In this document: positions 7,799-64,000 of the stretch, in pieces
Layout of the letters: each line of letters begins with the position of its first letter
Position numbering within the stretch: the first letter of the stretch is position 1
NCBI GenBank assembly: GCA_010356995.1
Contig: ML996704.1
Span: 62,001-126,000 of the forward strand
DNA: 64,000 nt
Reading direction: 5' to 3'
Origin: Trichodelitschia bisporula
Taxonomy: Eukaryota
Notes under the pieces: model-generated
What the model was told of the DNA's origin: nothing
The model's database searches: none
The model's input: only the letters and a program-made list of their open reading frames with translations
Position numbers and translations under genes: made by a program

Positions 7799-9069
7799 NN
7801 NNNNNNNNNNNNNNNNNNNNNNNNNNNNNNNNNNNNNNNNNNNNNNNNNNNNNNNNNNNNNNNNNNNNNNNNNNNNNNNNNNNNNNNNNNNNNNNNNNTA
7901 TGGTATCGCTACGGCGGACTGGTGGGTCTGGTGTGTCTGGTGTGTCTGATATGTATCCGCGATATCCATAGATGGTAATACGAAATGGACTGCACTTGCC
8001 GACCTGCGAGGCCGTGGTGTGGACCATAGGCAGCTGATGCCGTTGAACTGCGACATGCAGACGGCCCGGCCCTGGACGGGAGCCTGCTGACCCAGCGGTC
8101 GTGCGTGCCGATATCAGGGTTGGGAGTGCTTGGTGGTGGGTCGGGGCAAGGCGGACCAGACCTGAGGGGTATGCGGTTCATGGCATTCTGCTTACTTGCT
8201 TACCGTACTTACTTTCGGGATAATGCGGAAGTGCTGGTGATGGTGATGCGGGAGTTGGTGGTGGTGAGGTGCGGGCCAATAGGCGCGGCTGTGCGATCGA
8301 TCGCTCTTCTGCGCTGCGCTGCGCTGCATATTGCCGGCGCTCATGCATGCGGTATTGAACCGGGGTGATTCTTCACTGAAATAGCATGCATATGTTTGGA
8401 GACAAGCCGGTTCGTCGACTCGTCGAGGCCATCACTCTGCGCCTCTCGCATTTCACGCTGCCGGCAGCACGAAACGACTATTATACTCAGATGGCGGCCT
8501 CGACTGTCCGTCCATACTCATCCGATTCCCATTCTATCCACGGCCTACGGTGGTCCTCGGATTCCCATCCTATCTGATATTCTTCATTGTGTGGTGCGGG
8601 AGGCTGAGGCTGAAGCGCCCCCTCCCCCTATCCCCCCCAATCCAACCCCACCACCACCCCGCCCCCCTACCCCGCCCCCGGCCCACTCGTCACACGCCCC
8701 GCCCACTCACCTACCCTTTCACAATCCCTCCCGCCCTCCCTCCCGCCGCACTGCAATGCGCGAGGGCGCGTGCCTGCGGTTGGTTCCAGGATAAGGTGGT
8801 TCTCCCGGTGCGGCGGGAGCGTAGGCATATCAAGGCAATGGATTATCAAGGCATAAGGTGGCTTGAGAGGATGGGTTATCAAGGAAGTTGAAGGTGGCTT
8901 GAGAGGACGGGGGCTGAAAGAGATGGGGGGTGGTGAGACGGGGCTAGTTTGACAGCCATGGGCTGAGGGAGGAGTTAGGGGGGTACGATAAGCTTTGGAG
9001 ATATATATCCACCCCACCATCTTCATCTTCAACGCGGTTTGCGCCCTGACATCCGCTCTGTGTGACAAC

Positions 9070-43182: not shown

Positions 43183-44013
43183 NNNNNNNNNNNNNNNNNN
43201 NNNNNNNNNNNNNNNNNNNNNNNNNNNNNNNNNNNNNNNNNNNNNNNNNNNNNNNNNNGGGGGTGTGGGGGAGGAATGTGGGGCGCATGGCTAGCGTTAG
43301 GGTTGTAGGATATGGGTTTGCGGTGGAGTTCCGGGTGTGTTGCTGTGTATTTGTGTGTTGTGCACCTGTAGAATAGGGCGCCTGGCCGGGCGTGTGGTTT
43401 GTGTGGATTGTTGAGGTTGAGGTAGACGGAGCGTTTCGGCGACGCATGTCGTTTATTGTAGAGGGCTGTGAATTCCGGCGGTGGCGCGCTGGGTCGTTAG
43501 ATGTTTATCTTATACTGTGATGTCAGGTCCGTGGATGCGGTTATCGTGCGTGATTTCCAGTTTATAGGTTCGGTTGTCGCGGACTCTGATGCCGGATGGT
43601 AGATCAAGTCGTGCCGTGCCGTGCCGTTAAAGTCCAGTTGTCGTATCTGGTTCTCGTATGTCCGTGATTTGTTCGCTCCCTGGATCGGGTCGTGAAGGTG
43701 GATGATAACCGGTTCCTGGGAATGTCTGTAACGCACGGACTTGCACGGGCTTGCACCGGCTTCGATGTGCATTTTTGATCGAAAGGAGTGTTCCACTGCA
43801 GAATCTAAACTTGGTCGTTAGTATTATGTTAGAAGGGGAAGGCTGCTTACTCTTTCGTACGGCTGGCTGTGCGGGCTTCGGGGATGGAGAGGTTTACGGG
43901 GTGGGTATGGCGAGGGGGATTTGCATGAGGTTGCGTTGGGGGGGAAGATGTTGAGGAGGATGTCGAGGAAAGAGAGAGGTCGAGGGAGATTTCGAGAGAG
44001 GGATGTCCATGGA

Positions 44014-45855: not shown

Positions 45856-47225
45856 GATGGAGGGACGGGGAGGTCGGAATGGTAAGTGCGAGGTTGGTGG
45901 AGTGATGAACCGGTGAGGAATACTTTGTTCGTGGGGTAGATGGTGACAAAGAGCGCGATGCAGGTACCTCTGCAGAAGACGCGTGGTGCAGGGCGATGGA
46001 GGGGACACGATGAGTGATTGTTGCTATCTTGGGATTAGCCTGTGCTTGGATCGTGCCTGATTAGGCAAGAGAGATGGTGGAGCGTACCTTGCGGGTTGGG
46101 AGCGAGATGAGATGATGTTGGGATGGGGAGGAGGAAGGTGGGAGTGGTGGGGGTTTATAACTGAGGAGAAGGAGCTGGGGAGGGGTGGAGAGGAGAAGGG
46201 GGGCAGGANNNNNNNNNNNNNNNNNNNNNNNNNNNNNNNNNNNNNNNNNNNNNNNNNNNNNNNNNNNNNNNNNNNNNNNNNNNNNNNNNNNNNNNNNNNN
46301 NNNNNNNNNNNNNNNNNNNNNNNNNNNNNNNNNNNNNNNNNNNNNNNNNNNNNNNNNNNNNNNNNNNNNNNNNNNNNNNNNNNNNNNNNNNNNNNNNNNN
46401 NNNGGGGGGTGGAGAGGGGGGTGTGGAGTGTGAAATGGGGGGGTTGTGGTCGTTGTGGGTGGGTGGGAACAGACAGTGTGGATGGAAAATGCAGGTTGGC
46501 TCGACCGGGGAGCGTGTACAGTACGGAGGTACATGCGACGACAGACCCGGGAACAGTCCAACGGGAGGGGATTCCACACGGGATGAGCGATGACAGGACT
46601 TGATTGAAGATGCAATGTTTGTTTACACACCATGCATGTTGGTTGCTGCACGAAGTCGGATCCCATCGCGAACTTCCATTGCCCCTCAGTCTGGACAAAA
46701 CGCGTGTTTGGCGTGGTCGTGGGTCTGGAGCCCGGCCCTAAAATGTCTTGGCTGCTCTTGCTGTCCGCAAATTCGCTCGGAACGGGCGGCCATGACTTTT
46801 CCTTGCAGCCCTTTGGACGAGAGGGGCGAGGCAACAAGGCTTCAGCAGTCTAGACAACAAGGTATCAAGGCATGCAGGCAACCAGGCATGATATTCTGCC
46901 CCCAGGCAGTAAACAGTTACATAATTCTGGAGCCTGAGGCACAAATCCGGTACCGGTACCCTCCGAGCACGGGATCGTGAGGAGGTCTGGCCCCCGATTG
47001 CTGCCCCGTTGACGACATCGGCTGTTATTGGCACGAAAGCCGACTGCATCCCATCCTCTACACTTTGCCCTTTCACCAGGTAGCCTCTTCTGTACGCCCA
47101 CCGAGTGCAGCACCGCCAGCACTATCGCAAGAGGCGCCAACACGCCCCAGACGACCACTACTTGCTTATTCCGGGCCTCCAGCGGCCTCAGACGGCCAGC
47201 ATACACACAAATACACGCATACAAG

Positions 47226-51414: not shown

Positions 51415-52320
51415 TGGTCGGTGCCATTCGGTGAATCTTCATGCGGGCGTTTTCGATTGCATGATCGGTGTTTGCGGGTTTTTACGGCTGGGATGGACAC
51501 GGGCACGGACTAGGGATGGACTTACGGGTCTTCGGTGATGTGGCGTCTACGGTTTGATGGTTACCTGGCGTGATGAGATAGATGGCGCTGGGAGGATACC
51601 CGGTGGGACTGGGATACCTGGTAGGATTGGGATTGGTGAAATGGATTTTTAGCATGGCGGATATGGGATATGCTTCACTTCTACTGCTGGTGATACTTTA
51701 CTTGTGCTCTCATGCTTCGCAAGAACCTTGTCCGGAGTTTTAGGCCGTGAACACCTTTCATGGCCGTGACCACCCCACATGACAGGTCCGCCGAGGAAAA
51801 CCACGACGCGCAACCACGATTACTCGTGCCCAAAGTACCTTCGGCTTGCGCCACGCAAGACTGGAACCCGCAGGCGCTAGTTTTGCCTCTTCGCTCCCAT
51901 GTTGCGCGTTTTGCCTCTTTCCCTCCAATCTACCGCCATCGTGCCCATCTTGCCAACCTCGTGGGGTTTGTGGGTGGCCAGGTTGACCCCACTCACCACC
52001 AGCCTGGTCCGGAAGAAGTCGGTCCACAGCTCAGAATTTAGATTTCGCCCTCCGGTAGAAATTCCATGTATAGAAAGGCCATACGGTACAACAACATCTA
52101 ACTTTGAAAAGCGTATCTTCCTGCTCCGTCCTGTCGGGTAGGTGAGAATGCGGCTGTGGCGTTTCATCGGAGGTCGGGCCGAAATTTGCGGGTGGTCCGG
52201 GCGAGCCGGCAAGCCCGCGGACCGCCAGGCTTGTCCGGACAACCTCAATCGATGCGAAGCATGATACGCGCAGCGCCTTACCGAGCCTGTTTCCTTTGCA
52301 AAACAGCACCATGTGATGCA

Positions 52321-53028
52321 TTCAGGTTTAAAAAAAAGCGCCAAGGGCGTTGTGATGCTGTCAGCCTGAAGGTGGGGCGTCGTCTCTAGCCCTGTACGAA
52401 TTGGGAAGGGTTGGCGGGCTTTGGGGGGGGTGCTGCGGCATCGTGAAGAACGCCATGCACACCGCTGAAAATGTACGCCAAGACTTCCCATTGCATCTCA
52501 CTGGGCTGGAAATACCATACAATTAATTCTGATTTCAAAAAGGCGCGTTGCGATGTTGTGCCCGCATCAGGCTGAAGATGGGGTGTCGTGCACGGCCCTG
52601 TCCGACTTGGGAAGGTTTTGCATGGTGTGGCGGCGGTGCAGCGGCATCGCGAGAAACGCAACCATGCAGCTCAAGATGCCGGCTTTACCTTTCCATGGCA
52701 AGTGTATCGGGTCATGATACTTTACGACAGCTTTCGGCTTTCAAAAATGCTGTTATCACGTTGTGGGTGCGTAAGGCTGAACATGGGATGTCGTGCATGG
52801 CCCTGTCCGAATCAGGAAGGGTTGGCGTGCTTTGGCGGTGGTGCAGCGACGTCGTTGAAAACGCCGCGCACACAAGTTGGGTACTATATTAGGCTCCTAG
52901 AACCCTGTTCCTAATTAGGAAAAGTAACGAATCATTTGAAGCTTCGAAAATCCTCGTTGAGACGTTGTGGTCGCATCAGGCTGAACATGGGATGTCGTCT
53001 CCGGCCTCGTCCGAGTTGGGAAGGAAGG
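52321..53028. repeat. Degenerate non-coding tandem array, 4 copies, ~205-bp period
   Basis: Anchor CTGAA(G/C)RTGGGRYGTCGT at 52366, 52572, 52777 and 52981 (spacings 206, 205, 204). Each unit has a ~135-bp similar core and a ~70-bp dissimilar spacer. The fourth copy is truncated. Confidence 0.92.
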
Positions 53029-54477
53029 CTGAATCACGTGAGCAGGGTTCGAACAACATGTCTTCGGAGGACAGGTCAGAGCACTAGCGCGTCTCATGCG
53101 ACTCGGGCGCAAAACTGTTGCGCCTTCATATCCTGCGCTACTTGTAGGGGCGTCAGGATGCTTGATTGCCTTGCATGTCCTATTTCGCATGGGATTTACA
53201 ATTTTTTTGAAATGTCGGCATTCAGAGCCGGTTGATTGACTGCGAGTTTAAAGCATTCCTTTGAGATTTATGTCTGTTTAATGCCAAAAAGTGACTTTAA
53301 GAAAGCGAGAATTTGAAAATGGAAAGGTTAGGCAGAAGGATGTGAGGATGGAGCACGAAAGCTCAGTCTGTGGGTGATGTTTTACGCCATTCACCAAACC
53401 GCCTACGAGGAAGACAGACCAAACTGCCGACGGAAAAAGCCCGTCGTGGAAACATGTCAATACTTTCAATATATACCGCATTGAAATGCTGATGGGGGAG
53501 CATCCTTATGGGAGCAGTCGCCATCTTCAACATCCACCTGCGACACTCGGGATGCATGGTTATACCGAGCCTTCGAAAATGCTTCTTGGGCAGCCCTTCT
53601 CAGAAAAGCCGTGCTTGCCGCTATATTTTTGCCACACTCATGGCCAAAGCTGTATAACCGGAACTTTCCACTGGACGTCGACGCGCCGCCGCTCGCGGCC
53701 CGTGCACCTACGATAACGGCACGAGCCAAGGCTGAATCTCTGCAACGCCATGGTGCCTATGCGTACCAGCATAACACGACGCGGTCTGTGCTCTGTGGGG
53801 TATAAATACTGATGGCGGTGGCATACGACAACCTCGCCACATCATTGCGCGACCAACAGTGGCGTCGGCAAGCAGAAGCCGACTGTGAATCACAATTTGT
53901 AATAAGTGGCAAAAGGGAACAGGCTGGAAGATTCCAGGGGACAATCACTTGGATATATAAACACAGTCTCTCTCGTTGCTAGAAAATCAATCAAGTCAAT
54001 CCTTTCTCACACAAGTCTTTTGGTACCTTCCAACTGTTGGAAGGGGCCAGAAGGATCAGATTGATGTTAGACGGATTCCCATTTGTTACAGCCTTCTGAT
54101 ATTGTAAGTTCCTGTATCACTTCGCGCTCGGTATCTTTGTTGCCGGTATCCGTTAGCGCTCGGGATTGCGTACTTCCGTTGTCTTGTTTCATCGTATCTT
54201 TGGCTCGACGCCACTCCTGTTCCATATTTCCTAAATAGTACGAGTTGCCCACCTGGTACACTCGACAGTTCAGTCTACGTCAATCAACAGAAACCTTTGT
54301 TTCATCTGTTCTCAGCTTCTCCAGTCCAACAATTGATAATCACGGAGTTCGAGTGTGTTCTAGTTCTTTCTGTTTGCGCAAGCATATTCGCCATTCTTTA
54401 TGTATATATATGTCAATAGATAGTTAGGTTGCAGGAAATTGACCAACTCATCGCAATACTCTAAGACCCTAAAGTTA

Positions 54478-54740
54478 CAACAGTTTCTAAGCCTGATATC
54501 CCGGCGGCCTCCTACGACCGCAACAACGCTCGCGAGGCCGAAGCTCAGGGCAGCACTGGTGGCTCCGATGAGTAGACCAACACCTTCACCAACTTCTCAG
54601 TGGCTCTGTACCCTCCATATGTAAGTCAAGAACCACTTGCAATGGACATGAGGCCAAGATCTCCAGTGACAGCAAGATTTGGCCAAGGGCTGTGGCCAGC
54701 AATAGATATGGCTGGGTAACCTTTGAGGAGCTGCAAGGGT
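54478..54740 (+). pseudogene. 3' remnant (copy 0) of the tandem small-protein family
   Basis: Translates PDIPAASYDR..AREAEAQ...DE* versus copy A PEIPAGFYER..AYEAKAR...KE*. It is followed by the same 3'UTR intron-like sequence (GTAAGTCAA...GGACATGAG...CAG) and 3' flank as copy A. Confidence 0.75.
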
Positions 54741-55123
54741 TAGGTGCTCGGATTGCATACTCACGTCATTTGCTCAGTGTTTTCGGGCTTAGATTGTTCA
54801 AGGCTCCGTCCCAGTTGTAGTTCTAGCTCGAATTCCAAAAACTTCAAAAATATGTTCGTGCTTTGATGTGACATTGATGCCATTAGAGACTGTAATATTC
54901 TTCTGGCGCTCTATGCAAAGAAAGCTGAATAATATCCTTGGTCATCTCGTCCGCCCTGAATTTAGCACACTGAAACAATTGGCGGCTCTAAAGAAGGTCA
55001 CAGTACCAGCGTCTTGCTCAAAACGGAGTCGTAATCAGGAAGAAAATATATACCGTAGCACAGTTGAAATGAAAACGACCCAGTCACACAGCAATGAGAA
55101 ATCAATTCGGCTTTTCGGTGCCG

Positions 55124-55167
55124 CAGGCCACAAGCAAGTTAGCGAACCTCGCTAAGAGCCGAGCAAC
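55124..55167. repeat. Near-identical ~44-bp element with hairpin (second copy 57144-57188)
   Basis: CAGGCCACAAGCAAGTT(A)AGCGAACCTCGCTAAGAGCCGAGCAA occurs twice, 2020 bp apart. It contains the stem-loop TTAGCGA-ACC-TCGCTAA. Confidence 0.92.
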
Positions 55168-55964
55168 ACCCCTGTCCGGTTTCGTCTGGCATCGCGGCAT
55201 AGGGGGAGCTGCCCGAACAGCCAACTTTTATAGCCTTGATAGAAGGTATGGTGGTCTCAGGACATGCTATAATGGGATCTAAATCCTAGAAATCCTGTAG
55301 CCCTGCTAGCGGCCAAAGCGATAACGCCGGCCGAGTCGCCTTCAGGCCATTATATCCTGGCTGTTTCAGAAACACCAGACTTCGGAGCGGCAAATCATCA
55401 GGCCGCCAAAAGTCTTATTATCTCATATCCCAATACTGTCAACTGAAAACCTGGGATGGCAGCCCCTCAATGGTCCAGAAGGTTATAGAAGAAGGCGGTA
55501 TGGCAGGCCCGTGCCAAGGTATCAACGGGCAAAGCAAGCACCGCGTACCTGCCATTTACGGCCTATCAACTGGCAGCGCAGGACTTGGAGCTTGAGCCAT
55601 CTATGACCTTAGCTCCATAATGCTGCCATAAAGGTCCAGGCCGCGAGCTTTCAAACCATTTCTTCTACAACCACTGCTCACAGCATACTGAGAGCTGCAT
55701 CCTACCACTCATCCTAGTAAGTACCTTTCCTTTGCAATCTCTCTCCCTCGTCAACGCAACAGTTGGAGCTCAAGTCATCTGTATCCTTGGCTTTTAAATT
55801 CCTTAAAGCTCCTGGCCACATATTTTTCAACCATTTCCTTTACAACAGCAGCTTACAGATTGTAGACCCTCACCACATACCACAACTTCTAACATATCGT
55901 CCAACCCAATTTCATCTTATCCTCAATACCCCAAAGCACTCTTCAGTCCATCTCTACTACCACA

Positions 55965-56643
55965 ATGAGTTCCACCTGGACTGATCTGGCCAAGGCCTTT
56001 GGGGCGACCGAGGAGGTCCGGAATCCTCCCGCCACCACGACCGACAAGGCTAAGAAGCCGCAGGCCACGGCCAACCCGAGTAAGTTGAGCCCTCATTGCA
56101 TTGGCGTGTCTTAAGCAAGCTGACCATACCTACAGGCCAGCCTGTCCGTAAGGATACTGGGGCTCGTCGCTCGACTGCCACTCCCAAGGGGAAGCACCGC
56201 CGTGCCTCCTCCAACCTCTTCGAGACTGCCCGCCCTGATCATCTCGACCGTCGTCGGACAATGCTCCAGAAGGCCAAAGCGATGGGCTCGAGCAAGGCCC
56301 AGGAGTTCGATGATGAGCAGTACTTTGATGCAGCGGATGAGTGTAAGATAACCTTGCTAAATTGGAAAATTTAGCTAACTATGGGTACAGACGAGTTCAT
56401 GCTCAATCCCAAGGGTATGAACAAGTCGCGCAGTAGGTTTATCCCAGGCTTGAATATGATCATGAACTAACATCTGCTCTAGTGAATAAGCGCAACTCCC
56501 AGGTCATGGCACACCAGCGTCGTCAGTCGGAGCAGGTTCAGCAGCCCGAGATCCCCGCTGGCTTCTACGAGCGTCAGTTCGACAACCGTGACTTCGCGTA
56601 CGAGGCCAAAGCCCGGGCGGCCGCCGTTCGTGACAAAGAATAG
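55965..56643 (+). CDS. Copy A: unknown small basic protein, 174 aa, 4 exons
   Basis: Exons 55965-56079, 56136-56342, 56391-56432 (42 nt) and 56483-56643 splice in frame through canonical phase-1 introns with branch sites. Putative 3'UTR intron 56687-56731 and 5'UTR donor at 55717. Confidence 0.8.
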
Positions 56644-58229
56644 GCATTCCTATGAAACTTCCCAGAGGGCCAGTTCCCATCCATAGGTAAGTCAATGGCC
56701 ATTTCAACGGACATGAGCTAATTTCCTTCAGCGCCAATTTACTTAGCCAGGGGCAGTGGCTAACAACGGATATGAATGGGGAATCTTTGGGAGTTTGTAG
56801 GGTTTGCTTTCTCATGACTACTGTACTTTGCGACTAGAATGGAATGCAAAAAATGTGCAATATGCCTGCTTCAATGTGACCTCGCTGCTATGGCAAGCTG
56901 TAACACTTGATTAGCACTTTTTATAAAGGATGTTAAATGACATACTCTGAAGCCTTGCCCGCACTGAGTCCGGCAGATGCAGACAGGTCGCGATTCTTAA
57001 GATGGCAGTGTATAGGCACATTTCTCAAAGGAAACCATAAGTAGAGTAAAAATTCTATTTAAACGCAGCTCAGTCAAGATGGAAGCACTCCAGTGGCACA
57101 AAAGAGAGGGTCACGAGGGGGTTCAGTCGGCTGGCTAGTGCCTCAGGCCACAAGCAAGTTAAGCGAACCTCGCTAAGAGCCGAGCAATACCCCAGCACGC
57201 CCGGTCCGATTTCATCCAGCATCACTGTATGGGGGGCAGCTGCCTGAACTGACAGTCTTTAGCCAGCTAGCAGCCCTGAAATTACAGGAGCTGAGGTTTG
57301 CCCGGGTGTGGCGCGCGTCTGATTAGCTCCGAGCTTTACTTCCTTGTTGAACGCGTGATCAACCGTCCGAATGCCCTGAGCTTGAGGAGATTTGAGTTTT
57401 GTTTTGACATCGACTGTGAGATGTACCCATCCAGATTGAAGACTGAACGCTTGCAAAAATGTAGTACAAACACCAGGTAACTCTATGTCTGTGTGATGCC
57501 GAAGTGACTTGACATCCATAAATAAGCACTGGATTTGACAGAGCAAAGCCTCATGCTCTACTACGAATTGTCCACGTGGGCCACAATCAAGGGATGTAGG
57601 GCTGCTTGTTACGTTTGGAGCACTGCCATATCGAATATTTGCGATGCTACAGCATTGTACGCAGCCAAACTCAACAAGATTCAAATACCATATTTGCTGT
57701 GTGTCAGTGTCCGCCAAGTGTGGCTGCATCCGTGGATATAAACTGTGATATTTGTAAACTCCTCGATGGAGGCATACCTATATTATGAGAAGCAGACCAC
57801 CCCTATTGATGCCGTTAAATGGCGACGCACTGGTTGAGAGCGACAGCGGATGCTTTACATTCGGTATTCCAGTTGGGAACGAAACATGGGATAAAAGACA
57901 TACAGTATACCAAATGTTCTCGGAATAACGCACTGCGATGCAAAAGACATAAAAAGCTCGAGCACCCAGCCTTAACTGCTTGGCACCCGCATGCTGATCA
58001 AAATGCTTAGCGTCAACTCTCTTCGAAACCTTTCCTCTACAGCCTCCACACTGTTCACATTCGACGAACATCGTCAGTCCTGCGCTCACTTTGTAAGTTT
58101 TTGTTCCCTCCCTCGTTCTCCCTCACATCGTTTTCTTCCATCCTTCCACGGTCACCTAATACCCAGCAATAAGTACTGATATTGTTGCAGACATTGCTGA
58201 ATTTGAACCAAAACACCTGTCCCCAAAGC

Positions 58230-58800
58230 ATCATCAAGGCTCCCAGCTGGAAGGAAAAGGTTCTCGAGATGAACAAGCATGGCCCAAAGCTTGGGAAGGA
58301 CACATCGGCCCCTGATGGCAACACCGATACTTCGGCTGGTGTCGGTAAGCTTTCACACTCCGAGAAGCTCTTATTCATGCTAATCACGCCGTTATAGCTA
58401 GCACCCGCACGGCTATATGCCCGGTCGCAAGTCATCCTACGCTTGCAAGGTCATCATGACTGGTCCACAGGGGGGTCAAACGAACGACAAAGCTGCTGAG
58501 GCTACCACCAACGGGACTGTTGGTACGGATAACGTTGACGGCAGTAAGACTTAACTCATCCCATTTGTATTTGGATACTGACATCGACAGACGAAAACGT
58601 CACCCCGAAGGCTGCCAAGCTCCGCCGCTGTAAGTGTTTAACCGGAATGTTGATAAGCCTGCGCTTACTCTCATATAATCTCAGAGGCGGGGGTCGCGGG
58701 CTCGGGTCGGAAGCGTCGTTGGACCCTTCTGGATGCGAAGGCGATGGCTTTCACCTCGCAAGATACGGGTGTCTGGGAGGATATACCGGGGGAGAAGTAA
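58230..58800 (+). pseudogene. Copy B: degenerate paralogue of copy C
   Basis: Introns 58345-58397, 58544-58590 and 58630-~58678 resemble the copy C introns. ATC stands where C has ATG, a frameshift gives TGA at 58457, and the last acceptor is TAA instead of TAG. The last exon reads KRRWTLLDAKA...WED versus KRRSTLLGKKA...WED in C. Confidence 0.8.
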
Positions 58801-59749
58801 GGTCTCCTTTCGGTTGCAACTCATGGCTGGGAGTCGGGCAAAGGAGAGGTGGGTAGAGCCATTTTCCTACAGTAGATAGCTAGGCGTCAGCCGCAAATGT
58901 CACATATTTAAGCAGTCAAGCAAGTTTTGAATGAACACGTGGAAGAGAACTTGAAGAGATAACTTACTCCAGGTTTCTGTGTTCAAAGTAAAACGTATAA
59001 AAGTATCGACATTATATATCTTGCGGCCATCTCAGCTCTAGCGAGATGTGCCCCTTGAACGCTTTCAGTTCACTGACTGAAAGCGGGCGATGCTATATCA
59101 GACAGAAGGTGGTAACGAACGTCCCCTGAAGTGCTCAGCACACAAGCACTATATACTCAAGATGAGAACGTACTTGAGACGAGAGCGGCCTCAGGGCGGA
59201 TTAAAGAAGGCCCCCGTTACAAGCTCAGTGGCAGGAATGAGCTCTTGGGTCCTCCAGAGCACAGGCCGGCAAACATAGAGAAGACCGAGCACTTTGATGC
59301 TTGGCGGCTGCCGGTCTGGCTATAAAAGCCAGCAGCAAGCTCTCTCCAAGTCTCCTCCATTACAGCCACACCCAACACTCTCTTGCTGTCCCATTACTGC
59401 TTTCTGAACAACCGTTCCCGAACAGTAATTGCTTTGCGTCTACCATGTAAGTCTCCGTCCCTCTCTCTCATAGACACTCGCCTTTCACTACTGTATTTCA
59501 TCCTCCTTATATCACCTCCACCTACTGCACCAAAATCGCGTCAGCATAACATTTCCACTTTACAACTCACGTGTACCTTTGTTTTCCTTCATCCGGAAGT
59601 CCATCTCAGACGTGCCTTTGTTTACCACATCACTTGCTTGGAAACTTCAGTACACAAGACGAAGCGAGGTTCAGGAGGCAAGTATATGTACTGGCATTGA
59701 TGCAGTCACTTCCAAGTTCCAAGAACTCCATCAACGTTCACAAGCCATC

Positions 59750-60337
59750 ATGCCTTTGGCCGACATCTTTCGCGAGGCGGCCGAGGACGCTTACAAGCTT
59801 GACAAGGAGGCTTTGGCCGCTAAGGAAAAGGCGGCCGCTTCGGAGCGGGCCAGTAAGTTTTCACTCCCCGAGCGCGTGTTCTTCATGCTAATTGCGCTTT
59901 ACAGTTCAGGAGGAACAGGTCAAGGCGTCCGGCCGCAAGCCGATCATGCAGCGGAAGGTCACTCGGCCCCGTGCCGTCACGATCCTCCGCAAGCAGACTC
60001 ACGTTGCTCTGCCCACCATGAAGCCCACTGCGAACGCTTCCGTCGAGGCTGAGGGCAAAGAGAGTAAATTCAATTCATCCCACTTGCAGTCGATGCTGAC
60101 ATGGACAGACAAAGAGGCCAAGGGTGGAATGGAGACTATGTTCCGTCGCTGTAAGTAGTTATCGACACTGCCGATGAGCCTGCGCTTACCTTTATAGTCT
60201 CCAAGATGCGAATGTCTTCTTCGGCTCAGAAGAACAAGCGCCGTTCCACGCTTCTGGGCAAGAAGGCGAAGTCCTCTAGCACCGACGGCACTGGTGCGGA
60301 GGACTCCGCTTGGGAGGATCTCCAGGAGGAAGACTAG
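59750..60337 (+). CDS. Copy C: unknown small basic protein, 147 aa, 4 exons
   Basis: TATAAAA at 59321 and a 5'UTR intron 59447-59705. Exons 59750-59852, 59905-60063, 60109-60150 (42 nt) and 60198-60337 splice in frame via phase-1 introns. Confidence 0.82.
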
Positions 60338-60644
60338 GGAGGGAATTGCTGGGCAGACGACAGTGAGCAGATGGTTGGCTCCCAGGATGCCTTTCCTCCG
60401 GACTTGACATGATTTCCTCTGTAGTTCTTCTAGCATAGCGACACGTTGACAGAAATTGCACACCTTGCACAAAAGATTGTTCGTGAGCTGTGGCACATCG
60501 TCAAGCAATGAATGTGACATACCCAAAAGACATGGAAGGCCAAGGTGGGGGCTTAATTTCGGAACTGCTTGAGTACTTGCGTCCTGTCATTTGAATCCAA
60601 AGAGCTTAAAGATATCCATACCTCTTGTCGACACCGACCACACC

Positions 60645-61285
60645 ATGACCCCCGCTGCCGCCCCATCAGTTAAGACCCCAACGAAGCTCCGCCGCCCTCC
60701 ACCGCGGGTGGAAAAGGCCGCCTTTCCCAGCTTCATCAAGCCGAACGAGAACCGCGCAAAGATGATGTTCAACAACGCGAACGCAAAAGACATGAGCCTC
60801 GCAGAGGCGAACGCCATCACCTTCGATGAGATCAATGCTGGTAAGCCCTGAGTGATTCGAGGGATGAGACGTTGGAGATCCCGAGGCCGGAGGGCCTAGT
60901 ACGGATCGTACGGCGATGGGCGGGTCGAGGTCATGGTTACCGTGGGTATGGTTGTTTATTGTTATTGTTATTGCGGAGTGGTGAGTGGTGAGTGGTGGTC
61001 ACGGAGGTCCGCATCAAGATCACAACGCTAGTGGCTGACACAGAGATACGTTCATGATGAAGTCTAGGCGGATGAAGAGCACCCACGGTAAGCGGATATC
61101 ACCGATTCATAGACATGAGCTGACCTTGTGCCAGAGAAAAAGCGCGACGGCAGCTCAAGGGGCACAATTACCGCACGCCTGAGCAGGCGGCGAAGCCGGG
61201 TACCCCATTGAGAACGCGCGGAATCGTGCCGACATACCTAAGTCGGGGATCGATAGCCGCTGTGTTCTGTATTGACTGCAAATGA
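60645..61285 (+). pseudogene. Copy D: frameshifted paralogue of copy A
   Basis: Exon 60645-60840, then a 42-nt microexon 61046-61087 (TFMMKSRRMKSTH versus A EFMLNPKGMNKSR; weak GAG acceptor). The last exon starts at 61135, and its A-like frame (QLKGHNYRTPEQAAKPGTP versus QVMAHQRRQSEQVQQPEIP) needs a 1-nt shift. Confidence 0.7.
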
Positions 61286-64000
61286 ACATCCAGAACGAAA
61301 GGTGGCAGCTGATCGGACTATGAGCAAGGTGTAAGGCGAATCTCCACTTCGGGCATCTTGGATTCATTCAGCATGATCAGCAAATGACGGAAGACGCTGA
61401 GGTTGAACTCTGCTTCAAGTGAGTGCGTTGAATTTTTTAAGATGCAACACTGGTCGGAACGATGCATTCCTTAGTGCACAGTTATTTGATGCCTTGGCCT
61501 GCGTTACGATGCTTTGGCGACCAAACTTAGATCGCCCAAGCACCACAACGCAAGCGCAGGCATCAAGAAACTACGCATTAAGGAATATATCCAACCCGTC
61601 CACGAGAAGCTTGCAGATACGCGGATCCCTCTATCCCGAGGAAGTCATCAGAATCCAGCGGAAAGAAATCGAGGCAACCGACGAGGCAACCGACGAGGCA
61701 AAAGCGGAGCTGTTCGCCCCGCAGCACCTCCCTCCATCAACTTCCGCGAACCTCAACGACATTAATCCAGAAGATATCCTACCTCGAATACCGGAGGTCT
61801 TCTTTGGGGTCGTCATTGACGAGGTTGTATCCGAGATGAAGTCGGGAAGCGGCACGAGCCGTTCGCTAGAGCGGAACGTACCCCTGTCTGCCGCGGCGAT
61901 TGGCAAACAGATGATACAGTTGCCTTCCAGGCTTCAGCTTTTGAACCGATGTCGTAAAAATCAGCTTGACGGCGGTTCGGTCTAACGTTACGCCTGTCAA
62001 TTCAGATTCATCCGCGGTGGAGGCTGTTCCCAGGGAGTTCCTCCATGGCAGGGAATGGAGGTTCCTCGTGAAAGCTGGCGCTTATCAGCAAACTGTGGCG
62101 CGCTCGGCATGAGAACGGGACGCGCAACTCATTGGCTTTGGCATTGCAATGATGGATGGGCTCTTCGATGCGACAGGAACGGATACAGCTAATTGGGAGA
62201 AGCAGCGGTATCCATGGAGAGTTTCGTGAGAAGACATCCAGTTCCCACAAGCGGCGCCTCGAGGCGGACCATACTTGCAAGGACGATTTGTCGAGGTTCA
62301 TGGTACGCTCACCGTCCCGGTCATGGACCCATAAATTTCTGAGCCATACGTTGAGCAACCCAGGAATATATCCGAAGATGAGAGGTAGTCTGGAGCCGCA
62401 TGCTCCAGCAGATGGCCATGATGTTCCAAGGGTTCGGACCAGGGCCGTCCAATCTGCGAAGCATGTCGGCGAGGTGAGCTAGACATGGAGGCAGACGTCT
62501 GGGCTTGTTGTCTCCATCGGCCATCACAGGCTAGACACATGTACCGTGGGTGAAGACATAGGGAGCCCGCCAGAGCGTCGTCGGATTCAGTGAGAGCATG
62601 TTGGGCGCGGCATGTCCATGGACATCCTCGGAATCAACACTCCGAAGAGCGATATCGACACTATTGTCTACTCTTAGCATACGAAATGGTGCATACGGAC
62701 GGGAAGGAAGTCCAGACGGATCAGTGATACCTAGCTCCACATCACCAATCAGCTCCCGCACACTAGCGACTTCGACGCCCCAAGCTTCCCATTGCATGGT
62801 CGCTTCGAGGTTCGTCGGCAGGCATGTGATGCATGGGCTCCACCACCTCTCCCGTCGCGCTGCAGAAGGCTGACATTGCTTTTGCAGCACAGTGGTAAGG
62901 CTTATCGCATCCCAGGATGTTGGCGACATGGTGCGGGAGCTCGTCATCCGGCACCACATCATCGCGAGCTACCCCTCTCGCGTTCGTCGTCGATCGCCCC
63001 GCACCGGGCGGGCGGACGGCTGAGCTGCTGCCATGTGGGAGGGACCGGTTCGGCTGTTGCGTCCTGCCTCGCGTTGGTGGACGGGCGATAGGGCCAAAGT
63101 TGGTCGGCGATGATCGAATGAGGCGCTGCGGGGAAGCTCAATGGTTGGCGCTTGCTATGCTTGCTGTCCCGGTTTTTATAAACAAGGCATCAGCCTTGTA
63201 GCAATGCTGGCAGGCTGACAGTCGTGGTGGGGGAGCAGACGGGGTATTTGAGGGGGTCGCCGGCCCACGGGCTCCAACGGTCACCAGAAGTGATCGTGCA
63301 GTTGTGCGGAGAAACTCCGAAAACCCTTGTCGATCGTAAGATCGTCTTTGCACCTCTTCACTCTGCATGATTGCATGCATGTCATCGTCTGAGAAATCTC
63401 CCCGCGAACGAACGACGTCAAAATAGGGCGTGGAAAAAAGAAACGGTCGTTCCCCACTGCCGCCTTCACGCCATCTATATCTGGGGGCGCCCCGGTATCA
63501 TCCGTTCACCGACCAGACCCTTGCCCATTCAACTAGCCTAGCTCCGCCGCATTGCTACCATTTCTTAACCCTCACAACCCCACACTCTCGATCGTGCCCG
63601 GGACCTGCAGCAAGATTCTCGAGGCCCAAGACACCAGCTGTTGAGCTGCACAGTGTGCGGCATAGCAAAATATTTGCCGCCGACCGTGGCTCCCCTCACT
63701 TCTTCCCTCGGTTTCGGGTACTCTCTGGCTTCACCTCGCCGAAACCACCGGCCTCCAGATCACCGTACCCTTGTCGGGTAGAAACGGAAGAGAACGAACG
63801 ATCGCCTGGCGCGACCACCTCCTCGACTACATCTATCTCACGCTCGCCCATGGATTTATGAGAGCCTAGATCGACAGCGACTCAGGCTCCTGGCATTTCA
63901 GACGGTACCTGGCTGCCGTCTGGCCGCGTCTTGTCTCACCCACAGCTTTTTCCACCCTCGACAAATCTACCACCTGATCTCTTCAACCGCCCACCATGAC

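Follow-up and report, generated by a model that had tools for sequence, protein, structure and literature searches.

What kind of locus carries five small genes and gene remnants on one strand, keeps their exon plan and nearly erases their protein sequence? The question is raised by a cluster on contig ML996704.1 of the dothideomycete Trichodelitschia bisporula (GenBank assembly GCA_010356995.1), of which we analysed a window of 64,000 nucleotides (nt) (contig positions 62,001 to 126,000, forward strand; all coordinates are those of the window). A preliminary description had found five same-strand copies there, here called 0, A, B, C and D, and had read them as one fast-evolving family in birth-and-death turnover with the pattern of genetic-conflict genes. 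We consider it fairly probable that the locus is a lineage-restricted cluster of genes for small, disordered, probably nuclear proteins, formed by local duplication and subject to birth-and-death turnover, whose right half lies under antisense transcription that possibly keeps C and D low. Every reading discussed here draws on one genome.

Two of the copies, A and C, read as intact genes. Splicing their predicted exons (Table 1) reproduced the coordinates, protein lengths, intron phases and microexon sizes given in the preliminary description. Each gene has three coding introns of the GT..AG class, 45 to 56 nt long (56, 48 and 50 nt in A) and all in phase 1, and each has a penultimate microexon of exactly 42 nt, the exon sizes being 115/207/42/161 nt in A and 103/159/42/140 nt in C. 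The donors of A are GTAAGT, GTAAGA and GTAGGT, with branch sites of the CTAAC/CTGAC type and YAG acceptors; donors, branch sites and acceptors are canonical in C as well, and its sense splice signals are conserved with those of B. With a codon log-odds table trained on nine Pfam-confirmed open reading frames (ORFs) from the window, the proper frames of A and C scored +63.0 and +59.0 bits, and the other five frames reached at most +1.8 bits (A) and -3.7 bits (C). The G+C content at third codon positions (GC3) is 0.74 in A and 0.75 in C. When 51.3-63.9 kb was scanned in ninety-nt windows (140 positions in six frames), 14 windows exceeded 8 bits, and nine of these fell, in frame, within exons predicted for A, B, C and D. 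By codon usage, A and C are coding on the forward strand only.

Upstream of its sole ATG, gene A carries two tandem copies of a TATA-like box and leader. The second lies within a predicted 5' untranslated region (UTR) intron, 55717-55858, whose donor and acceptor were read from the sequence, and it could possibly act as an alternative promoter. In C, a TATA-like box at 59320 stands upstream of the predicted 5'UTR intron.

The RNA evidence consists of contigs from two public runs, both of one sample from one study, with the stage unspecified. The runs contain 40-47% of the sampled words of 54400-61400, and the contigs are spliced and therefore represent RNA; their strand is known only from splice-site dinucleotides, and such contigs drop rare variants and cannot show transcript starts. 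Ten splice joints fall on 54400-61400, three of them GT..AG, all in gene A, and seven CT..AC. Two of the joints in A, 56342>56391 and 56432>56483, coincide with predicted introns 2 and 3, which flank the microexon, and the other marks an intron in the 3'UTR. Gene A is thus expressed, at a contig depth of about 5, and spliced as predicted at introns 2 and 3. Over A, C and D the contigs carry no sequence differences. No contig in the two runs has a joint at A intron 1, and contig cover is absent at 54868-55803 and 56974-57909, neither of which is evidence of silence; no RNA joint was found for any of the 5'UTR introns, the sole contig over the leader of B (58033-58328) being unspliced. Fungal mRNAs with spliced 3'UTR introns can be targets of nonsense-mediated decay.

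The three remaining copies are broken, as had been proposed. Copy B has lost its frame at the junction of exons 1 and 2, and a TAG is created where its microexon meets the last exon. In D, the first coding exon measures 196 nt and the microexon is in phase; the last exon is one base off the A-like frame, so that the ORF ends after 104 aa, and the A-like frame reaches 61285. Copy 0 keeps only the tail of an A-type last exon and its 3'UTR, and tblastn detected no A-like exons upstream of it. With two copies intact and three broken, tandem duplication accompanied by decay describes the cluster well. Beside copy 0 we also observed RNA contigs of depth ~500 that match only 54405-54493, with three mismatches, and then continue into sequence outside the window; a highly expressed paralogous piece elsewhere in the genome must be their source. 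The contig break at 54482 is the point at which copy 0 begins to resemble gene A.

Table 1. Features of the cluster and its surroundings, in window coordinates (aa, amino acids).
Feature	Position	Strand	Remarks
Gene A, coding region	exons 55965-56079, 56136-56342, 56391-56432, 56483-56643	+	174 aa, 4 exons
Gene A, TATA-like box and leader, tandem duplicate	55574-55683 and 55752-55858	+	blastn 68% over 110 nt
Gene A, 3'UTR intron	56687-56731	+	45 nt; RNA joint 56684>56730, cut +2, GT..AG; 44 nt past stop
Gene C, coding region	exons 59750-59852, 59905-60063, 60109-60150, 60198-60337	+	147 aa, 4 exons
Gene C, predicted 5'UTR intron	59447-59705	+	259 nt; sequence only; acceptor region aligns with that of B
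Copy B, B/C-type pseudogene (span 58269-58800)	exons 58269-58344, 58398-58543, 58591-58629, 58685-58800	+	microexon 39 nt
Copy D, decayed A-type (span 60645-61285)	exons 60645-60840, 61046-61087, 61135-61211	+	microexon 42 nt
Copy 0, A-type last-exon remnant	54465-54575 (stop 54573-54575)	+	tail only; frame +8.1 bits codon log-odds
Copy 0, 3'UTR remnant	54576-54745	+	homologous to A 3'UTR; intron-like stretch 54621-54666
Long spliced RNA, part seen	58378-61400	-	contigs of 5123 and 5806 nt, 2.5-3.2 kb further beyond 61400
Introns of this RNA	58867-58967, 59126-59173, 59525-59576, 60136-60189, 60464-60522, 60576-60621, 61064-61124	-	CT..AC joints
Conserved non-coding elements e1 / e2	55118-55218 / 57138-57249		112 nt; 79% over 112 nt, best-conserved piece of the cluster
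Further ORF	61626-61919	+	23.6 bits codon score; no Pfam family; under antisense RNA
Weaker coding pieces	62549-63881	-	~10 bits each; candidate body of convergent gene

Comparison of local protein alignments with 500 composition-preserving shuffles links A to D (frame restored, with X at the break; z 8.1, 0/500), the C terminus of A to copy 0 (z 4.0, 2/500) and B to C (z 5.9, 0/500). The pairs C-D (z -0.6) and B-D (z -0.9) behave as unrelated, and A-B is marginal (z 2.6, 14/500). A tblastn search of the window with all models returned no further copy and only within-type links. On these comparisons the copies fall into two sequence families of the same architecture, {0,A,D} and {B,C}, the same two subtypes that had been distinguished before; along the strand they are interleaved, in the order a, a, b, b, a. 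The earlier view of one family of five is borne out by the common intron positions and phases and the microexon (42, 39, 42 and 42 nt in A, B, C and D), but not by sequence, which shows no significant similarity among all copies. A possible link between A exon 2 and the last exons of B and C, an RR-T-L..AKA stretch, was set aside as nominal, with 46 and 37 of 1000 shuffles reaching it among 56 tests. A few short motifs outlast the divergence: RRST and RRAS in A (residues ~49-63) and, in the last exons, RRST in C (60198-60337) and RRWT in B (58685-58800), along with a C-terminal W-E-D-L in C and W-E-D-I in B in acidic surroundings. They resemble basophilic-kinase sites and Atg8-interacting motifs, and easily arise by chance in such compositions.

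The proteins of A and C are basic (pI 9.85 and 9.66), with 19-20% Lys plus Arg, short basic runs and no Cys. Their grand average of hydropathy is -1.27 (A) and -0.94 (C), that of D being -0.92, and in stretches of 19 residues the mean Kyte-Doolittle hydropathy peaks at -0.31 in A, 0.05 in C and 0.37 in D. This strong hydrophilicity and the want of a hydrophobic 19-mer indicate that neither A nor C has a signal peptide or a membrane span, in keeping with the K/R-rich, signal-less proteins first described. By composition and hydropathy, the two products look like intracellular, disordered proteins. A secreted effector was considered and rejected, since neither protein has a hydrophobic N terminus or Cys.

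Searches for relatives, made exon by exon for the spliced proteins, agree with the statement that no known family is represented. A exon 2 yielded 131 candidates among longer proteins and C exon 2 four in a protein search, none of which scored. Against 1.84 billion representatives, HMMER returned two matches to A exon 2, both spurious and rejected as tandem-repeat proteins with 19 and 14 matched stretches. A metagenome scan with the A/D alignment gave 300 pattern matches and no confirmed one; three exons had no PDB match at E <= 1, and five exon translations no Pfam match at E <= 0.1. The 6-phosphofructo-2-kinase ORF next to the cluster shares 99% identity with an NCBI protein whose name points to Trichodelitschia, and Trichodelitschia's own protein set appears to be present in the collection searched. 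Its next best matches are only 72-70% identical, and the lineage is therefore isolated; because the host has no close sequenced relative, the homologue blanks are weak evidence. The exon queries lack even a self-match, which suggests, weakly, that A and C are missing from the host's annotated proteins. Real spliced small genes with 42-nt microexons can thus be missing from searched protein collections. Among publications naming the species, judged by titles and the beginnings of abstracts, none concerns this locus.

The best-conserved DNA of the cluster, by blastn, is non-coding. Its elements e1 and e2 lie ~0.5 kb downstream of 0 and A, respectively. They have no Rfam match, and an exact 25-mer of the element had no match in metagenomes; RNA structure was tried as an explanation and rejected, the z values for two copies on both strands (-0.85, +1.14, -0.72 and +0.88) being no better than those of shuffles. 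Between 0 and A, the 3'UTRs align by blastn at 71% over 153 nt (54591-54741 versus 56656-56804), and 120 of 177 3'UTR positions are identical (68%, z 10.4) versus 63 of 114 in the coding tail (55%, z 1.8). Between B and C, the block of intron 2, microexon and intron 3 is 70% identical over 129 nt. Identity is 108/144 (75%) in the introns of this pair versus 217/377 (58%) in the exons (Fisher p 2.6e-4), and homologous intron pairs (0.70-0.80) lie above all six non-homologous ones (0.42-0.63). Splice signals make up some of this excess, the introns being only ~50 nt long, and one of the pair, B, is a pseudogene. At third codon positions identity is 35%, and the proportion of synonymous differences (pS) is 0.67-0.73; synonymous sites between paralogues are saturated, and therefore no test of selection by the ratio of nonsynonymous to synonymous rates (dN/dS) is possible. 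As a cause of divergence, repeat-induced point mutation (RIP) was rejected: TpA/ApT in the cluster is 0.79, (CpA+TpG)/(ApC+GpT) is 1.31, and B and C differ by 182 transitions and 215 transversions.

The seven CT..AC joints belong to a spliced minus-strand RNA over C and D that the preliminary description had not included. It is antisense to the 3' end of B, to C and to D. Its joints lie at 58865-61125 in one contig per run, and all seven introns, 46-101 nt long, are GT-AG after the stated shifts; that at 59525-59576 is spliced in one run only. The 2602-nt spliced part holds nine ATG-initiated ORFs of at least 40 aa, the longest (127 aa) at -16.1 bits and none above +1.3 bits, and the ninety-nt scan found no minus-strand coding window above 8 bits within 58378-61400. 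Codon windows and ORF scores therefore show that the forward strand codes and that, within the cluster, the minus-strand RNA does not. It has features of a natural antisense transcript, namely an opposite-strand RNA overlapping a coding gene and no coding capacity in the overlap. Two of its introns mirror the sense genes: 60136-60189 in C and 61064-61124 in D each cover the 3' part of the microexon and most of sense intron 3, the antisense donor being the reverse complement of the sense branch site (CTTAC giving GTAAG and CTGAC giving GTCAG). The RNA is probably the 3' extension or read-through of a convergent gene at ~62.5-64.6 kb, or else an independent antisense RNA. In the simplest reading of its origin, the transcript of the convergent gene would continue across the forward-strand ORF and the copies D and C into the end of B; an independent RNA is just as possible.

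The favoured reading brings these results together as follows. Both families follow one plan, with a TATA-like box, a predicted short non-coding first exon and 5'UTR intron, three phase-1 coding introns and a penultimate microexon of 39-42 nt, and their most likely ancestor is a single old gene that was duplicated locally again and again. A is the expressed and spliced member, C is intact and coding-like, and B, D and 0 are decaying. The extreme divergence may mainly reflect the relaxed constraint typical of duplicated disordered proteins, with splice signals, UTRs and a handful of short motifs apparently bearing most of the constraint. The right half of the cluster, from the 3' end of B through C and D to the ORF at 61.6-61.9 kb, is covered by opposite-strand transcription in the form of the seven-intron RNA, and the genes may be condition- or stage-specific.

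Several results weigh against this reading. A and C show no sequence similarity, the preliminary description having recognised almost none: their local score of 37 sits at the shuffled mean of 37.4 (z -0.1), and 259 of 500 shuffles reach it, which fits the very fast protein divergence claimed for the cluster. Profile comparison of {A,D} with {C,B} by hhalign gave a probability of 0.2%, and the best of 56 exon-by-exon comparisons was reached by 25 of 1000 shuffles. It is thus architecture, and not sequence, that argues for common descent of the two types, because similarity between them is not significant. The better preservation of introns and 3'UTRs than of coding sequence could reflect diversifying selection rather than relaxation. 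No sense joint of B, C or D was found in the contigs, which drop rare variants and so do not show such joints to be absent; the proposed splice junctions are accordingly confirmed by RNA at A introns 2 and 3, and expression of C is unproven because neither run, both being of one sample, has a sense-strand junction for it. The minus-strand contig depth of ~320, compared with ~5 for A, is a whole-contig mean that cannot rank the parts, and that antisense transcription and the UTR introns would hold down C (and D) under the condition sampled is our inference rather than an observation. Charge is what places the products of A and C, which are probably nuclear or nucleic-acid-associated.

Two unrelated orphan families could instead lie side by side, their common plan being coincidence or convergence. 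Shuffles, profiles and exon tests detect no similarity between types, and tblastn links copies within types only, as this explanation would have it; A and C nevertheless share phase-1 introns, the 42-nt penultimate exon, similar exon sizes, the TATA-like box and the predicted leader intron, and the types are interleaved on one strand. About 30% of fungal introns are in phase 1, and microexons make up a few per cent of exons. By these general fungal figures, the match is improbable by chance and common descent of both types from one old gene is likely, and we regard two separate families as unlikely. It is also conceivable that only A works, B, C and D forming a graveyard whose live product is the minus-strand RNA and in which the frame of C has merely not yet decayed. 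Both runs show only antisense RNA over C and D, and the neighbouring B and D are broken. C, however, keeps 147 codons over four exons, with canonical splice signals, +59 bits and a GC3 of 0.75; B and D lost their frame whereas C kept it, and the comparison of B with C conserves the sense splice signals. This explanation we think quite unlikely.

The genetic-conflict reading would make A, C or both a spore-killer-like toxin, an antidote or an incompatibility factor, with turnover and divergence driven by an arms race. It would suit this reading that the proteins are small orphans with no domains, that pseudogenes and partial duplicates lie alongside intact copies, and that introns and UTRs are better kept than coding sequence. 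Known fungal killers can be such genes: Skc1 of Fusarium verticillioides has 70 aa and no domain or distant relatives (PMC4978907), and rfk-1 of Neurospora Sk-2 originated in partial gene duplication (bioRxiv 10.1101/404004). The cluster proteins are also short, without domain or distant relatives, and partial duplication occurs here too. What defines those genes, however, is killing, restriction to killer strains and strong sexual-phase expression, whereas the cluster is known from sequence and one RNA sample. We know of no sequence similarity between Skc1 or rfk-1 and the cluster proteins. The wtf genes form a multi-copy, fast-diverging family with pseudogenes, and encode multi-pass membrane proteins made in two forms from alternative starts. 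The cluster is likewise multi-copy and fast-diverging and has pseudogenes, but the membrane spans that define wtf are absent from A and C, and on these the poison-antidote analogy drawn earlier with wtf fails. A single ATG lies downstream of both promoter copies of A, with no two-product layout visible in the sequence. Further points against conflict are the lack of HET, NLR, nuclease or kinase domains, the surroundings of core genes without transposons, the saturation of synonymous sites (pS 0.67), which allows no dN/dS test, and the restriction of the data to one genome; duplicated disordered proteins would be just as likely to diverge fast. We judge the conflict reading very improbable. A bolder version, a young conflict locus of a new kind, would have small disordered nuclear proteins under an arms race that accounts for exons outpacing introns and UTRs, C silenced in vegetative cells by the long, mirror-spliced antisense RNA until the sexual phase releases it, and A and C as killer and protector or as incompatibility factors; we give it hardly any credence. 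Were conflict the true explanation, the cluster would be a new type of fungal driver; as it is, it is an orphan gene cluster.

As an orphan gene cluster, the locus can be set beside others in birth-and-death turnover, with which it shares same-strand local duplicates, intact copies beside decayed ones and no relatives outside the lineage. It differs in that a plan of four to five exons, including the 39-42-nt microexon, outlasts a nearly erased protein sequence, and in that its non-coding parts are better kept than its exons. It thus offers a compact case in which architecture, introns and UTRs persist after the protein sequence has gone. In snake-venom phospholipases and conotoxins, exons diverge faster than introns and UTRs. 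The identities found here for introns and exons of B and C (75% versus 58%) and for the 3'UTR and coding sequence of 0 and A (68% versus 55%) resemble that pattern; here, however, splice signals account for some of the excess because the introns measure ~50 nt, one of the compared copies, B, is a pseudogene, and synonymous sites are saturated. The minus-strand RNA is comparable to fungal natural antisense and convergent read-through RNAs in being an opposite-strand spliced RNA that runs over whole coding genes and is non-coding there, and differs in being unusually long and intron-rich (seven introns in 3 kb) and in having two mirror introns. A long multi-intron antisense RNA over coding genes is a testable case.

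The surroundings do not bear out the earlier placement of the genes in an accessory block. The cluster lies a short way beyond the 6-phosphofructo-2-kinase gene (49.5-51.3 kb), and the window also holds core genes for Sec16, a phospholipid flippase, RPC82, an N1221/DUF3402 protein and a mitochondrial carrier. Over 51.5-64 kb (~12 kb) there is no Pfam-recognisable gene: the 10 + 25 ORF and exon translations of 51.3-63.9 kb contain no Pfam family and no HET, NACHT or related allorecognition domain, and among 25 flanking or intergenic ORFs Pfam detected no domain of transposon, HET or NLR type. No transposon relics or RIP signature occur in 51500-64000, and the Rfam and tRNA scans of the window returned no match. 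The G+C content is 47-53% over 54-62 kb, and ~50% in the cluster stretch, compared with ~58% elsewhere in the window. Three runs of N interrupt the window, at 7799-7898, 43183-43258 and 46209-46403.

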